From the sequence record MZ189262.1: DNA of 64,000 nt; one strand, 5' to 3'. Shown one piece after another: positions 16,849 through 64,000 of the stretch. Positions within the stretch are counted from its first letter, which is position 1; the number at the start of each line of letters is the position of its first letter. The position numbers and the translations under genes were made by a program. This stretch comes from Escherichia phage W143. Under the pieces are notes generated by a model. That model was given only the letters and a program-made list of their open reading frames with translations, made no database searches and was not told where the DNA came from.

Positions 16849-17013
16849 TTACTCTTCTTTTTCTTTAGATTCCTCTTTTTTCTTTTTAGGAATCTGTTCA
16901 GGACCTTTATTTACTACAGCGCCTGACGTTGTTCCAGTAGAGATATTTTCAGGATTACCACCTGAATCTCCAGCTACCATATCTTCTTTAATAAATTCTT
17001 TAAACGTTTTCAT
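16849..17013 (-). CDS. small protein with CTS-like N-terminus
   Basis: 54-aa ORF read from reverse complement (MKTFKEFIKEDMVAGDSGG...); stop abuts the gene 61 start. Confidence 0.4.
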   Translation of the reverse strand: MKTFKEFIKEDMVAGDSGGNPENISTGTTSGAVVNKGPEQIPKKKKEESKEKEE

Positions 17014-60342: not shown

Positions 60343-60672
60343 TCAATTAGAAAATAAATTTATCCAAGATTGCTCTTTAATTAAAAATGGCTCAGAATCA
60401 TATGCCATTAAACTTTGGGTAATTAGTCCTTTAAAAGGCCCATCAATAAATTCCATGGTAAAATATGGAATTTTATTCATTAATCTTGCATTAGGAGCAG
60501 TGCACAAAACTCTGCATCCTTTGAATACGCCTTTTTGTAATTTGTATTGCTTAGGATAAAATTCGCTCAAGACGTTGTTATTTGCCAAAATTTCAAAATG
60601 ATTCACCAATTTATTTTTAATAGTTTTTGGCGAAAAATAAAGATATTCGAAAAGTTGCGTGTCTGTCATCAT
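60343..60672 (-). CDS. hypothetical protein
   Basis: track ORF trimmed to [10 protein letters not shown], abutting the upstream stop. Confidence 0.45.
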
Positions 60673-61208
60673 TGCATTCCGATTACGAAAAACTGCGGAC
60701 GAGTAATACCACCAATGCAACAATTACTATTGCAGCAGTGTTGTACAGTGTCAATATGGACGCTATAAATCTTATCCATATCAGGAGATTTAACAGGCTC
60801 ATCGATTATATACAAAATCCGCGAAAGCGATAAACCTCTGAACTTGCTTCCTTTATTACCGATAAAACTACGGACAGAATCGGTAAATAAACGAAAACGT
60901 ATATCATCATTAGAATAACGCGAAAATTCCTTTTTAATGTTATTTGCAGAAATTTTAGCGTAAGCTGAAGTATTAGAAAGAACAATAACTGTTCCACCGT
61001 CATACAACCAATTAGCGGCAAAATTAGTTACTGCAGTTGATTTACCGGATTGACGTCCACCATCTAGTCGAAGTGTGCAATACTGCTTAAGTAAGTCTTC
61101 AAATGGCGGGATATATTCGTTTTTACAAATTTCTTCTACTCTAGCATCAGAATGGTGTGTAAAAGCATTCATCAGGGATAGATAAGGACCAGTTAAAAAT
61201 GTTCTCAT
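60669..61208 (-). CDS. P-loop NTPase
   Basis: trimmed to MRTFLTGPY; Walker A GGRQSGKST, Walker B ILYIIDEP; track N-terminal extension lies in the repeat element. Confidence 0.5.
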   Translation of the reverse strand: MRTFLTGPYLSLMNAFTHHSDARVEEICKNEYIPPFEDLLKQYCTLRLDGGRQSGKSTAVTNFAANWLYDGGTVIVLSNTSAYAKISANNIKKEFSRYSNDDIRFRLFTDSVRSFIGNKGSKFRGLSLSRILYIIDEPVKSPDMDKIYSVHIDTVQHCCNSNCCIGGITRPQFFVIGMQ

Positions 61209-61224
61209 TTTATTCTCTCTAAAT

Positions 61225-61300
61225 TTGGGCCATTCCATGGCGCATGAATTGTCCATTTCTGTATTTACCCATTACCGCACTTGGGCTCGACCTTATTACA
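61225..61300 (-). repeat. about 75-bp intergenic repeat element, copy A
   Basis: about 80% identical to 61820-61895, including GGACAATTCATGCG and CGGTAAT blocks. Confidence 0.6.
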
Positions 61301-61448
61301 GGTTGGCGGGAATCCCTCACAGAATCATGAGGTCCAGCTTGTTCCCATGTTATTTGAATGTAAATATTTTTGCCTTAATACTTATACCAGTGTGGCTTCA
61401 TTAAAATTTTTTCATCGAGTCATTTTACCTCTCCAAGTAATTATGAAT

Positions 61449-61478
61449 ATACTATCACAATTTTAGGAGAAAGTAAAC
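61449..61478 (-). promoter_or_regulatory. T4-type early promoter
   Basis: GTTTAC 61478-61473, 18 bp, TAGTAT. Confidence 0.6.
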
Positions 61479-61480
61479 TA

Positions 61481-61783
61481 TTATTTACCTTTAATTACTT
61501 TAGCTGCTTCGATAGCCGCTTGCTGAAGGTCATCCATAGACATACCGAATTTAGAAGCAAAGTTATCAATTTTCTTTTCGACAGCATTCAAAGGCTTGGC
61601 CTGTTTACCTTCATTAGCGCCAGGAAGAGCGAGAATACGTTCTTTGTCAATATAAAGGCTTACAAGTTTCTTACGGTCTTTATCGGACAAATCATGAAAT
61701 GAATGGGCCTTTTTATTTATAGCGGCTTCTAATTTACCTGCACTCACTCGCGCTTCAGTAATAAATTCTTGATATGTTTTCAT
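61481..61783 (-). CDS. internal protein with capsid targeting sequence (IPII-like size)
   Basis: 100-aa ORF with N-terminal MKTYQEFITEA. Confidence 0.65.
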   Translation of the reverse strand: MKTYQEFITEARVSAGKLEAAINKKAHSFHDLSDKDRKKLVSLYIDKERILALPGANEGKQAKPLNAVEKKIDNFASKFGMSMDDLQQAAIEAAKVIKGK

Positions 61784-61819
61784 ATGTTTCCTTTAAATGT
61801 AAATAGTTTTATTCTTTAA

Positions 61820-61895
61820 GTTTGGGACAATTCGCACGCATGAATTGTCCGTTTCTATATTTATCTATTACCGGGTTCGAACTCGGCTTTATTAA
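61820..61895 (-). repeat. about 75-bp intergenic repeat element, copy B, with 9-bp perfect palindrome
   Basis: GGACAATTC-gcacgcat-GAATTGTCC hairpin; homologous to copy A. Confidence 0.6.
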
Positions 61896-62473
61896 GAATT
61901 ACCACGGGCTGCATTAGCAACGGCGTAAGCGTACTGAACATTAGCGTCTTTAAACGTACCTTTAGAGGTATCTAGTTCTGCCTTAAAGCCGCCTTTAGCC
62001 ATAACATCGGCAAATTCTTTACGGAAAGCCATTGCATCAAGACCTTTCCATGATGATTTGTGCTTAGCGAATTCAAGACCAGCGTAGTTGACAGCTTTAG
62101 CCAATTTATTATCAATGACCCATTTACCGGCTTTAGGCACAAACTTCGGGCCTTTTTGTTTAGAGAACAGTTTTAAATTCCAGCGACGAAGATCACTGTC
62201 GGCTTTAACAAAAGCTGCGTCTAAGTTACTAGCAACAACATCTTCAATATGAGCAAATTTAAGTCCGTCAACTTCAATATTTAAATCGGTACGCCAGCGA
62301 AGTCCTTCCCAAGCGAAAGCTTTAAAATCGGAAGCTTTTGTAGCTAAGTATCGTTCAATAGGGGCTGTTTTAGGGTCAAAGCCGTTTCCACCACGATAGT
62401 TCCACTCGTCCTTATTAATGCCTTTGGCCTTTACTACAGAAGCTTCAGCAATAAATTCTTGATACGTTTTCAT
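61892..62473 (-). CDS. internal protein with capsid targeting sequence (IPIII-like size)
   Basis: 193-aa ORF with N-terminal MKTYQEFIAEA. Confidence 0.65.
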   Translation of the reverse strand: MKTYQEFIAEASVVKAKGINKDEWNYRGGNGFDPKTAPIERYLATKASDFKAFAWEGLRWRTDLNIEVDGLKFAHIEDVVASNLDAAFVKADSDLRRWNLKLFSKQKGPKFVPKAGKWVIDNKLAKAVNYAGLEFAKHKSSWKGLDAMAFRKEFADVMAKGGFKAELDTSKGTFKDANVQYAYAVANAARGNS

Positions 62474-62499
62474 TTTTGTTCCTATTGTTTTAATTCATG

Positions 62500-62814
62500 T
62501 TATTCTTTAGGGAAGTTTTTAGAGTATGCGTCATAAAGTTTATTACCGATGCGTCGGAAAACTCTAGCTGCAAAACGGTTTTCAGGGTTTTTAATCATGA
62601 TTTGCATCATGTAAGTTCCTGCATCCGAAAGAGCTTCTTCATAGTACCCATTAATTTCTTTAAGAGTCCTACGTTTACCACCAGGACCATCAACAGTAAT
62701 TTTCCATTTACCTGTAGAAGTGCGGCTCGGTGGCTCAACTTGTTCAATCCAAATATAACCACCTTCAACGCGTTGGTTGGCGGATTCTGCAATAAATTCT
62801 TTATACGTTTTCAT
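62500..62814 (-). CDS. internal-protein-like gene with CTS
   Basis: 104-aa ORF with N-terminal MKTYKEFIAES. Confidence 0.6.
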   Translation of the reverse strand: MKTYKEFIAESANQRVEGGYIWIEQVEPPSRTSTGKWKITVDGPGGKRRTLKEINGYYEEALSDAGTYMMQIMIKNPENRFAARVFRRIGNKLYDAYSKNFPKE

Positions 62815-62844
62815 TTTTGTTTCCTTGTTTGTTTTGATAGAGTA

Positions 62845-62874
62845 ATTATACCATATTAATACTTAAGCGTAAAC
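62845..62874 (-). promoter_or_regulatory. T4-type early promoter
   Basis: GTTTAC 62874-62869, 18 bp, TATAAT 62850-62845. Confidence 0.7.
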
Positions 62875-62877
62875 CGT

Positions 62878-63138
62878 TTAAGCTTCACCGCCAGAAATAA
62901 TTCCGAAGTTGTTAAAATCGTATCCAATATCGTCAACATCTACTTTAGGACTTGCAGCAACATAAGCAATTTCACTACGTTTTGCATAGGTGTTGATTTC
63001 TTTACCATCACCACCTAAGAAAAAATACCCATTACGTTTTAATGAGCCAAAGTCTTCCGCATCACCAATGAAAGCTTTAACTTTAAATTTAGGACCTTTG
63101 GCATCTGCTTCAGCGATAAATTCTTGATACATTTTCAT
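62878..63138 (-). CDS. internal-protein-like gene with CTS
   Basis: 86-aa ORF with N-terminal MKMYQEFIAEA; directly downstream of denV. Confidence 0.6.
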   Translation of the reverse strand: MKMYQEFIAEADAKGPKFKVKAFIGDAEDFGSLKRNGYFFLGGDGKEINTYAKRSEIAYVAASPKVDVDDIGYDFNNFGIISGGEA

Positions 63139-63144
63139 TTTTCC

Positions 63145-63558
63145 TTAGTAAATTGATTTACCATAGTATTTGTACCAAGTAGGGCGTTGAGCAATTTTTT
63201 CATCTAAGCGAGCTTGACTTATCGCAATGGACGCTTCGGACGGGACATAATTATTACGAAATTCGACAGGGATGTCGGAAATATCCTGGACAGTCGTGTC
63301 CTTGATTTTGAAACCACGTTTCAAGCATTCAGCGATTAGCTCGATTTGACGTAAACGTAAAAATTCTAGTTTGTCGTAAAAGAATGTTACGTGACCTGTG
63401 CCTAAGATAAATGTTGGAGAGATTTTAAAATCCTTTACACGTTTACCGTTTTGAACATGTTTACGGACTGCACCAAATACGCGTGGTAATTCACGATACT
63501 CAGCCATAAGATGTTGGTCGGTCAGTTCAGAAACAAGTGTTAAATTGATACGAGTCAT
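63145..63558 (-). CDS. denV: endonuclease V (pyrimidine-dimer DNA glycosylase)
   Basis: start set at [12 protein letters not shown] (137 aa); recognisable as T4 DenV. Confidence 0.9.
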
Positions 63559-63585
63559 AATTTCCTCCAAGTAGTCGATGAATGT

Positions 63586-63615
63586 ATAGTATCAAAACCC
63601 TTGGAGGAAGTAAAC
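63586..63615 (-). promoter_or_regulatory. T4-type early promoter
   Basis: GTTTAC 63615-63610, 18 bp, TACTAT. Confidence 0.6.
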
Positions 63616-63617
63616 AA

Positions 63618-63899
63618 CTATTTTTCTGAAGCGCCTGAAATATATTTTTCAAGACGTTGTTTCATCAGCGAGCCGTTCTTAGCGATTTCTTCCGGTTTAT
63701 CGCACATACGCAACAAGGCTTCAAGCTTAACGATATCGCTGGTACGTTCAAATTTGCGAGTATCTATCTTACTAGCAAGTTCAGAAATACGTGCTAATAG
63801 ACTTTCGGCTTCAACCAAAGCTGCACCTAGCTTAGTTGCAAATGTGTCAGTAGCTTCGTTAAGAATAGATTCTGATAAAAATTCACTATATGTTTTCAT
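63618..63899 (-). CDS. internal protein with CTS (at the position ipII occupies after denV in T4)
   Basis: start set at [11 protein letters not shown] (93 aa). Confidence 0.6.
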
Positions 63900-64000
63900 A
63901 TATACGCTTTCCAAGTTCCTGTTTTAAATGTTGAGATTACGCGTTTCGCGCGATTAGGTGTCTGACGATACCATTTAGATTGGGCTAGATTTACTGCTGC

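Follow-up and report, generated by a model that had tools for sequence, protein, structure and literature searches.

Organisation of the locus

Within the 64,000-nucleotide stretch of DNA analysed here (hereafter referred to as the window) an internal protein (Ip) locus extends from the lysozyme gene e (63896-64000) to vs.8 (60669-61208) and is syntenic with the corresponding region of T4 and nine other T-even phages. The five consecutive minus-strand open reading frames reported in the first-pass annotation are all present with the lengths given there (93, 86, 104, 193 and 100 aa), and each of them opens with a capsid targeting sequence (CTS) of the MKTYQEFIAE type. In window coordinates four of these ip genes lie lower than denV and one lies higher. 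From high to low coordinates, the features of the region are:

63896-64000, minus strand: 3' part of e (lysozyme), truncated by the end of the window (read from the sequence)
63618-63899, minus strand: ip93, 93 aa, Ip5 family (phrog_3499 'internal head protein', E=1e-46)
63586-63615, minus strand: upstream of denV, site resembling a T4 early-type promoter (GTTTAC, 18 nt, TACTAT; consensus match only)
63145-63558, minus strand: denV, intact, Mosigvirus-type allele (Pfam PF03013 and phrog_1183)
62878-63138, minus strand: ip86, 86 aa, RB69ORF125c family (phrog_2667 'internal head protein', E=1e-19)
62845-62873, minus strand: upstream of ip104, site resembling a sigma-70/early-type promoter (TTTACG, 17 nt, TG-TATAAT; consensus only, 10/12)
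62500-62814, minus strand: ip104, 104 aa, Ip10 family (phrog_3966, E=7e-34)
61892-62473, minus strand: ipIII orthologue, 193 aa (phrog_5341, E=2e-117)
61825-61850, no strand assigned: hairpin GGACAATTC-N8-GAATTGTCC in the ipIII-ipII spacer (MFE -17.6 kcal/mol, z -2.9)
61481-61783, minus strand: ipII orthologue, 100 aa (phrog_7857, E=5e-55)
61354-61486, minus strand: denV relic (repeat and alignment to denV)
60669-61208, minus strand: vs.8 orthologue, downstream boundary of the locus (phrog_1488)

The stop codon of e (TGA) overlaps the start codon of ip93 (ATGA), an e/ip overlap which is likewise annotated in the phages phi25-307, ST0 and slur03. This ATG is situated at 63899; the ORF lister prolongs the frame to a TTG at 63914. 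The portion of e contained in the window is 100% identical to that of slur03 and 97-98% identical to those of Mosigvirus loci, and at the opposite boundary vs.8 shares 95% nucleotide identity with vs.8 of T4 and of slur03. Since a GGA-type ribosome binding site (RBS) is present 6-9 nt upstream of each ip gene and all of these genes show pN/pS values of 0-0.38 against close relatives, we consider them to be real and maintained. Positive selection was rejected, as pN/pS, calculated from very few substitutions, does not exceed 0.38 for any gene. Pfam and NCBIfam hold no family for any of the Ips, weak Pfam matches to DUF7412 and CsgH were below the cut-offs and disregarded, and an Rfam search of the 3-kb region yielded nothing credible.

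The promoter-like site upstream of denV can be aligned with the ipII-denV spacer of T4, and the hairpin within the ipIII-ipII spacer belongs to a 58-nt element of which a second copy is present at 61241-61298. No late promoter is found directly upstream of any ip gene, the sole exact TATAAATA being located inside ipII and one 7/8 match to it after ipIII. Late expression is hence assumed to occur via read-through from upstream.

Capsid targeting sequences

The N-termini of the five proteins share, in each pair, 6-10 of their first 11 residues; one of them starts with MKTYQEFITE, while ip86 carries MKMYQEFIAE and ip104 carries MKTYKEFIAE. Tyr4 and Phe7 within MK[TM]Y.EF are present in all five, and so are Ile/Leu8 and Glu10. 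In IPIII, residues 4 and 7 have been experimentally identified as the determinants of targeting and residues 8 and 10 as those of processing, the protease gp21 cleaving after L/I-x-E (PMC9026906). As Tyr4, Phe7, Ile/Leu8 and Glu10 match these determinants, all five proteins are classed as putative CTS-targeted head cargo. The putative gp21 sites at residues 8-10 read LSE, IAE, IAE, IAE and ITE. A second putative site (LNE, residues 13-15) exists in ip93, which aligns with I-T-E of T2 Ip5 and where the cut may fall instead, namely at residue 15; in leaders of the IPI type such sites end at residues 15-19. Six matches to a loose CTS motif are present in the 64-kb window, five in the ip genes and one in a 54-aa ORF at 17013, against none in 200 shuffles. 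At the DNA level, the CTS-coding segment forms a 32-nt direct repeat whose five copies are 75-94% identical. Beyond the CTS the proteins diverge completely, as had been claimed from inspection: global alignment scores are negative beyond residue 11, and blastp among the five mature parts (after residue 11) gave no match at E<=1e-3.

Relationship to known internal proteins

Protein searches with the five products revealed relatives of IPII, IPIII, Ip5, RB69ORF125c and Ip10. The array can thus not be regarded as a set of five novel genes. The 100-aa ORF is an orthologue of T4 IPII (93/100 residues identical over the full length, seven substitutions) and the 193-aa ORF is an orthologue of T4 IPIII (183/193 identical, 10 substitutions). 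That all five might turn out to be known ipII/ipIII alleles applies to these two of the five, ip93, ip86 and ip104 belonging to other families. Judged by their sequences, these three are members of already catalogued families (Ip5-like, RB69ORF125c-like and Ip10-like, respectively) and do not establish a new one. Nor is the expansion peculiar to this genome: each of the three families is represented in about 190-500 phage records, and phi25-307 possesses all five genes plus one.

Homologues of ip93 (pI 6.3, pN/pS 0-0.09) are contained in 496 phage records, 238 of them at least 90% identical. Its mature part shows 47% identity over 74 aa to T2 Ip5 (E=9e-19), and it also matches bas37_0261, an Ip5 (E=3e-19). 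As the identity to T2 Ip5 amounts to only 47%, a shared specificity is not to be assumed. The mature part of ip86 comprises 76 aa and is acidic (pI 4.9). Homologues are present in 216 phage records, that of SP18 being annotated as 'similar to RB69ORF125c', and the identity to the SP18 and Salmonella-phage homologues is 63-70%. With 0.26-0.38 ip86 exhibits the highest pN/pS of the array. The mature part of ip104 (94 aa) is basic (pI 9.6), and its pN/pS is 0-0.04. Its homologues, found in 189 phage records, include 'ip10' of VR20/VR25 (71% identity) and Ip10 of Shigella phage SP18 (70% identity, 100% coverage, E=2e-38).

A homologue search among 5.8 billion proteins returned 12 clusters for ip86 and three for ip104, all of which are T-even-related; none connects the two to a family of cellular proteins. 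PDB sequence searches with ip93, ip86 and ip104 gave nothing below E=0.07. The AlphaFold2 models of ip86 (pLDDT 50.4, shallow alignment of 8 sequences) and ip104 (pLDDT 62.3, shallow alignment of 4 sequences) are of low confidence, and a Foldseek search of PDB and BFVD with the ip104 model retrieved noise and its own sequence family only. No alignment was obtained between ip86 and the mature part of IPI* (E=4.7), and none of the five proteins matches bas37_0260, the inhibitor of McrBC from Bas37, better than E=2.7. The assumption that this inhibitor is a member of the Ip5 family was rejected, as it is the product of a neighbouring 77-aa gene unrelated to the proteins of the window.

denV, its relic and the mosaic structure of the locus

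The intact denV encodes endonuclease V, a pyrimidine-dimer glycosylase (Pfam Pyr_excise, E=3e-14) which shares 125 of 137 residues with T4 DenV. Its nucleotide identity is 98% to phi25-307 and ST0 and 80% to T4; against slur03 it amounts to 81% over the 60% of the gene aligned by blastn and to 71% in an ungapped full-length comparison. In the relic, the early-promoter region of denV is present as a second copy (61448-61486), after which come the RBS and ATGACTCG with the ATG at 61423 and then the final 68 nt of denV (61421-61354). What separates it from an intact gene is an internal deletion of 347 nt bounded by two GACTCG microhomologies; in addition, a TAC>TAA change introduces a nonsense codon, and the stop codon is gone. 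In translation, 14 of 22 residues match the C-terminus of DenV (maximum of 8 in 5000 shuffles), and 65 of the 68 nucleotides are identical to the intact denV of the Tequatrovirus slur03. An addition of ip genes around a fixed denV, as the first-pass annotation implied, is not supported. The difference from T4 mainly concerns the position of denV: the functional, Mosigvirus-type gene is placed within the array, whereas at the T4 site there is a resident denV that has suffered the deletion. The claim that four ip genes lie before denV where T4 has none is correct insofar as T4 lacks ip genes at that place; however, two of the four are the ip genes that T4 itself has, ipII and ipIII.

Starting from e, seven of the nine other T-even phages examined, covering six genera, carry a small ip, denV, additional ip genes and vs.8 in this order, and T4 is the odd one out. 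Across ten phages the e-vs.8 locus accommodates between 0 (Bas37) and 6 (phi25-307) CTS genes with at least 13 unrelated mature families, which is why we consider it a hotspot. The original description of Ip polymorphism is said to be that of Repoila et al. in 1994.

Segment-wise comparison reveals, for the flanking genes on the vs.8 side, 95-97% identity to T4 and slur03 and 70-94% identity to Mosigvirus. For denV, ip86 and ip104, in contrast, the identity to Mosigvirus is 95-99%, while in T4 and slur03 they reach about 80% (denV) or are absent. By these identities the window is a mosaic composed of a Tequatrovirus backbone, a Mosigvirus-type denV-ip86-ip104 block and a gutted resident denV.

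Proposed origin and function of the array

The region corresponds to an Ip locus of T4-like phages whose variability is known, and the finding is hence real but ordinary. Very probably it represents the second Ip locus of a T4-like Tequatrovirus, which is a known recombination hotspot, whose CTS-tagged products are injected cargo and whose array was built by cassette exchange. As far as the sequences allow it to be deduced, the ten-residue N-terminal CTS would bind each protein to the scaffolding core of the prohead, where the prohead protease gp21 would cut after I/L-x-E at residues 8-10. The mature proteins of 8-20 kDa would stay in the head, be ejected into the cell together with the DNA and act before the expression of any phage gene. 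For IPI-III of T4 alone, all of these steps are established, including the presence of the cleaved form in the mature head and the ejection with the DNA (PMC9026906). The array itself was most likely assembled, without local duplication, by import of the Mosigvirus-type denV-ip86-ip104 block beside ipIII-ipII in the Tequatrovirus backbone, upon which the redundant resident denV would have been deleted through the 6-nt microhomology GACTCG.

The expectation that internal proteins are injected anti-restriction factors is well supported by published work. Each of the T4 proteins Ip1, Ip2 and Ip3 inhibits a GmrSD type IV restriction enzyme of its own, Ip2 targeting GmrSD/BrxU of ECOR21 and Ip3 targeting GmrS1/GmrSD2 of ECOR17 (PMC12373910), and growth on ECOR17 requires ipIII (PMC9391042). 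Outside the GmrSD family, the CTS protein bas37_0260 of Bas37 blocks McrBC (bioRxiv 10.1101/2025.11.20.689424). Given that 93-95% of their residues agree with those of the T4 proteins tested, the two orthologues would most likely block type IV restriction enzymes, that of IPII one of the BrxU/GmrSD-ECOR21 type and that of IPIII one of the GmrS1/GmrSD2-ECOR17 type. For the Ip5-like, RB69ORF125c-like and Ip10-like proteins, the most likely role is likewise that of specific inhibitors, directed against defences which act early and depend on modification. The idea of divergent Ips as injected effectors against host defence is, however, not a new hypothesis. The proteins of "the two Ip loci" have all been proposed to be inhibitors of GmrSD variants, and ip4-10 of T4-like phages were screened accordingly, none of them reproducibly inhibiting any of eight active GmrSD variants (PMC12373910). 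For this reason a GmrSD target is not a given for the orphan Ips. The non-basic character of ip86 and ip93, by which they differ from classical IPs, counts against our explanation. The same holds for the late promoters, none of which directly precedes an ip gene, and for the models and fold searches, which lend no structural backing to an inhibitor role.

It is possible, although we would not favour it, that the orphan Ips are injected but inhibit defences outside GmrSD, for instance type IV enzymes (McrBC-like or of another kind), glycosylases directed at hmC or further first-response systems. Besides the inactivity of ip4-10 in the cited screen, the Bas37 CTS protein points in this direction, as it inhibits McrBC and not GmrSD, and so does the denV-ip86-ip104 block, which at 95-99% identity is common to Mosigvirus and to the Tequatrovirus backbone of the window. 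The DNA of Mosigvirus carries arabinosyl-hmC and that of Tequatrovirus glucosyl-hmC (PMC8594841), and the occurrence of one block in genera with different hmC sugars argues against targets which read one particular sugar. On the other hand, each of the three T4 Ips whose target is known acts on the GmrSD family, the diversity of GmrSD is far above the 15 groups tested, and none of the five proteins is related to bas37_0260. That at least one orphan Ip neutralises a non-GmrSD first-response defence, perhaps in an unusual way, for example by mimicking nucleic acid, appears somewhat doubtful to us. The best candidate would be the acidic ip86, whose cassette has crossed genera with different hmC sugars and whose pN/pS is the highest of the array.

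A mainly structural role of the orphan Ips, as core, scaffold or DNA-packing components tuning head assembly or charge balance and devoid of any anti-defence function, is improbable. It would accord with the T4 IPs being present in about 300 copies each and binding DNA at low salt, with the slower head assembly of IPIII mutants (PMC9026906) and with the basic nature of ip104. Yet ip86 is acidic and ip93 near neutral, a range of 0-6 genes at the locus among viable phages is hard to square with a structural need, and all three T4 IPs proved to be anti-restriction factors. A tandem duplication of one ip gene in this genome followed by rapid divergence, as the five direct repeats of the CTS-coding DNA and the adjacent genes on the same strand might suggest, is effectively refuted by the lack of detectable similarity among the mature parts, by close orthologues at other positions or loci elsewhere (e.g. 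Ip5 at the ipI locus of T2), by the imported blocks which segment-wise identity reveals and by the history of recombination and deletion recorded in the denV relic.

Seen as an array of injected cargo built by cassette exchange, the Ips constitute a pre-loaded counter-defence of the phage, active before its genes are transcribed. With Ip1-3 directed against GmrSD variants and one Ip against McrBC, it is reasonable to expect that each orphan Ip family may lead to the host defence it is matched to. The window adds neither a new family nor a new principle. It supplies three named, conserved orphan candidates together in one phage, and it is a clear example of how an array is rebuilt, with the import of a block across genera and the subsequent loss of the resident denV via microhomology.

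Comparison with known systems

IPI* of T4, an inhibitor of GmrSD-CT596, and Bas37_0260 exemplify the delivery principle predicted here, i.e. a CTS leader, processing by gp21 and injection with the DNA. Their sequences are unlike any of the five proteins of the window, and their genes are located in the other Ip locus (57B-trna.4), beyond the end of the window. T2/T6 Ip5 and ip93 are both helical-looking proteins of about 75-83 aa; T2 Ip5, however, is encoded at the ipI locus with an IPI-type leader (MKTFKEF...ITE), whereas ip93 follows e and carries a different leader. The proteins ip104 and ip86 are allelic variants of the Ip10 family (phage Pol, SP18, VR20/VR25) and of the RB69ORF125c family, respectively, with which they share the position after denV. 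With respect to ipII and ipIII of T4, the CTS, the order (ipIII followed by ipII) and the e-vs.8 neighbourhood are all alike. In T4, however, both genes are located upstream of denV, while in the window the functional denV is upstream of both and only the relic is downstream. The gene order is shared with the Mosigvirus phages phi25-307 and ST0, which, like the window, show the arrangement e>ip93>denV>ip86>ip104>...>ipII>vs.8, with shared genes 95-100% identical at the nucleotide level. Unlike the window, ST0 lacks ipIII, whereas the Shigella phage phi25-307 harbours all five ip genes of the window and, at the place of the denV relic, a sixth CTS gene (109 aa). In contrast to both of them, the window carries these genes between flanks of a Tequatrovirus backbone which is 95-97% identical to T4.

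Five genes with a common leader

On the minus strand between 61481 and 63899, five ORFs of 93, 86, 104, 193 and 100 aa start with a capsid targeting sequence (CTS), as the first-pass annotation had claimed and the ORF listing bears out. The endonuclease V gene denV lies between the first and the second of them:

63618-63899, minus strand: ip93, internal-protein ORF (93 aa)
63145-63558, minus strand: denV
62878-63138, minus strand: ip86, internal-protein ORF (86 aa)
62500-62814, minus strand: ip104, internal-protein ORF (104 aa)
61892-62473, minus strand: ipIII orthologue (193 aa)
61481-61783, minus strand: ipII orthologue (100 aa)
61354-61486, minus strand: relic of a second denV

All five ORFs, one of which begins with MKTYQEFITE, possess Y4, F7, I/L8 and E10, and any two of them agree at 6-10 of their 11 N-terminal residues. 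Scanning with a loose CTS motif gives six matches in the window, against none in 200 shuffles. The leader DNA constitutes a direct repeat of 32 nt whose five copies are 75-94% identical. Past the CTS the ORFs diverge, also as initially described, since global alignment scores among them are negative and blastp yields no match at E<=1e-3. Each ip gene is preceded by a GGA-type ribosome-binding site and is, as judged from pN/pS values of 0-0.38 versus close relatives, under purifying selection. The ip93 start overlaps the stop codon of e (ATGA). No convincing late promoter is present directly upstream of the ip genes, and Rfam gives no credible match.

A 54-aa ORF directly upstream of the primase gene 61 (16849-17013, minus strand; MKTFKEFIKE/DMVAGDSGG...) shows the IPI-type CTS features F4, F7, I8 and E10. 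Its conservation sets it apart from the Ip genes: 1232 T4-like records have it, those of Acinetobacter and Aeromonas phages among them. The ORF belongs to phrog_1823 (unknown function), is called 'putative head morphogenesis protein' in one T6 record and may, by its sequence, encode a conserved, unrecognised head-targeted peptide.

Family identity

Sequence comparison identifies two of the proteins as T4's own internal proteins, namely IPII (93/100 identical; phrog_7857) and IPIII (183/193 identical; phrog_5341), while the other three belong to already catalogued families, the same gene set being present in published genomes. ip93 is a member of phrog_3499 ('internal head protein'). It has matches in 496 phage records, 238 of them with >=90% and 258 with less than 60% identity. 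Where a match of the latter, distant group bears a gene name, this is ip5, and the gene sits at the ipI locus (T2, PP01, fHoEco02); T2 Ip5 is 47% identical to the mature part of ip93 (E=9e-19). ip86 falls into phrog_2667 ('internal head protein'; 216 records), and the SP18 record describes its homologue as 'similar to RB69ORF125c'. ip104 (phrog_3966; 189 records) shares 70-71% identity with Ip10 of SP18, VR20 and VR25, a name which in the SP18 record goes back to 'Ip10 of Bacteriophage Pol'.

Pfam and NCBIfam contain no family for ip93, ip86 or ip104, and no relative of solved structure was found for them. Among 5.8 billion proteins the mature parts have relatives in only 12 clusters (ip86) and only 3 clusters (ip104), all from T-even phages. 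The AlphaFold2 models are poor (pLDDT 50 for ip86, 62 for ip104); that of ip104 suggests a beta-beta-beta-alpha-beta-alpha core, for which Foldseek reveals no match outside its own family.

Locus layout and mosaic origin

The array is the already known second Ip hotspot of T-even phages. Its order in the window is e>ip93>denV>ip86>ip104>ipIII>ipII>vs.8, that of T4 e>ipIII>ipII>denV>vs.8. The T4 layout is the outlier: a small ip gene overlapping e, followed by denV, further ip genes and vs.8, is the usual arrangement, shared by Mosigvirus phi25-307 and ST0, Tequatrovirus slur03, an Enterobacter phage, Gelderlandvirus, Marfavirus and Gaprivervirus VR25, whereas WG01 (Dhakavirus) carries two ip genes ahead of denV.

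CTS genes in the e-vs.8 interval
Bas37/KarlGJung: 0
T4, slur03: 2
Enterobacter phage MY742, Klebsiella phage F48, Salmonella phage CGG4-1: 3
ST0, WG01, VR25: 4
Window: 5
phi25-307 (the window's five plus a 109-aa sixth): 6

The surveyed loci comprise at least 13 mature families unrelated to each other. Coverage of the 2.8-kb stretch reaches >=80% in only 28 of 50,697 phage records, so the five-gene version is uncommon, yet not unique.

Over 21 kb the best matches are RB14-like phages (95-96%), no genome of the phage collection being identical over this comparison; by sequence, the backbone is that of a Tequatrovirus. Segment by segment, the identities show a mosaic.

Identity of window segments to T4/slur03 and to Mosigvirus (phi25-307, ST0)
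vs.8 to vs.4: 94-97%; 70-94%
denV: about 80%; 98%
ip86, ip104: absent; 95-99%

Downstream of ipII a second denV has left three pieces: a copy of the denV early-promoter region, the ribosome-binding site with the initial 8 nt of the gene (ATG at 61423) and, fused to the latter, the final 68 nt of denV. The junction, at which 347 nt are deleted, exhibits a 6-nt GACTCG microhomology. The 3' piece is identical to the intact denV of slur03 in 65 of 68 positions, contains a nonsense change (TAC>TAA) and has lost the stop codon; 14 of 22 residues match the denV C-terminus, whereas 5000 shuffles reach at most 8.

The simplest history would start from a genome of the T4 type (...ipIII-ipII-denV-vs.8) which gained an e-ip-denV-ip-ip block through recombination, would then have carried two denV genes for a short time and would finally have lost the resident one. 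The repeated CTS, promoter and hairpin sequences are, we infer, plausible crossover points. The relic and the cross-genus block illustrate hotspot evolution rather than a new phenomenon.

At least two diverged denV allele classes, about 77-80% identical in protein and nucleotide sequence, exist in Tequatrovirus and move independently of the backbone (window copy versus T4 and other loci). The functional window denV is of the Mosigvirus/T4-like class, the relic of the slur03 class.

A 58-nt intergenic element is present before vs.8 (61241-61298) and after ipIII (61837-61894), both copies sharing 79% identity. The latter copy has a 9-bp hairpin (61825-61850; MFE -17.6 kcal/mol, z -2.9), the former is degenerate, and a related sequence is found ahead of the sixth CTS gene in phi25-307. 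The element may mark the border of a cassette or affect RNA stability. The annotated T4 vs.8 N-terminus (MRDSRQPVIRSSPSAVMGKYRNGQFMCHGMAQTY...) spans this repeat. In the window (61208-61320, minus strand) the corresponding frame is a separate, stop-closed 33-aa ORF and vs.8 is annotated as 179 aa in phi25-307, ST0 and slur03; therefore, the probable start of vs.8 is MRTFLTG (ATG 61208), and the T4 gene model may reach too far upstream.

Expected packaging and probable anti-restriction function

In T4 IPIII the first 10 residues suffice for head targeting, residues 4 and 7 governing targeting, 8 and 10 processing; the prohead protease gp21 cleaves after L/I-x-E, and about 300 copies per IP are packaged and subsequently ejected with the DNA (PMC9026906, PMC3012670). 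Given the CTS residues, ribosome-binding sites and purifying selection, packaging and injection of all five window proteins are strongly expected. At residues 13-15 ip93 contains an extra site, LNE, aligned with ITE of T2 Ip5.

The proposal that such proteins are injected anti-defence effectors had already been published and partly tested, with hits for Ip1-3 and no reproducible GmrSD effect for ip4-10. The T4 proteins each have their own target among the GmrSD-family type IV restriction enzymes, Ip1 inhibiting that of CT596, Ip2 ECOR21/BrxU and Ip3 ECOR17 GmrS1+GmrSD2, without cross-protection, and ip4-10 showed no reproducible interaction with further GmrSD variants; the authors of the study consider every protein encoded at 'the two Ip loci' to be probably aimed at GmrSD variants (PMC12373910). 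Plating of T4 on ECOR17 needs ipIII (PMC9391042). From these targets, a function of the window's IPII and IPIII orthologues as GmrSD inhibitors is a well-supported prediction. For the Ip5-like ip93, the RB69ORF125c-like ip86 and the Ip10-like ip104 a role as anti-restriction cargo is plausible; with pI values of 4.9 (ip86) and 6.3 (ip93), two of them are not basic, which speaks against their acting simply as DNA counter-ions.

Phage Bas37 encodes, at its ipI locus, a CTS protein that inhibits McrBC (bioRxiv 10.1101/2025.11.20.689424). This 77-aa inhibitor is unrelated to all five window proteins, whereas its neighbour bas37_0261 is a T2-type Ip5. Two more CTS-like ORFs reside in the e.x/tRNA region of Bas37/KarlGJung (MZ501089 7529-8691), whose counterpart lies past the window end: bas37_0243 (187 aa, MKTYAEFLTEAAKL...; 'Essential' in the HIDEN-SEQ supplementary table) and bas37_0244 (157 aa, MKSYTQFLNEAVLNE...).
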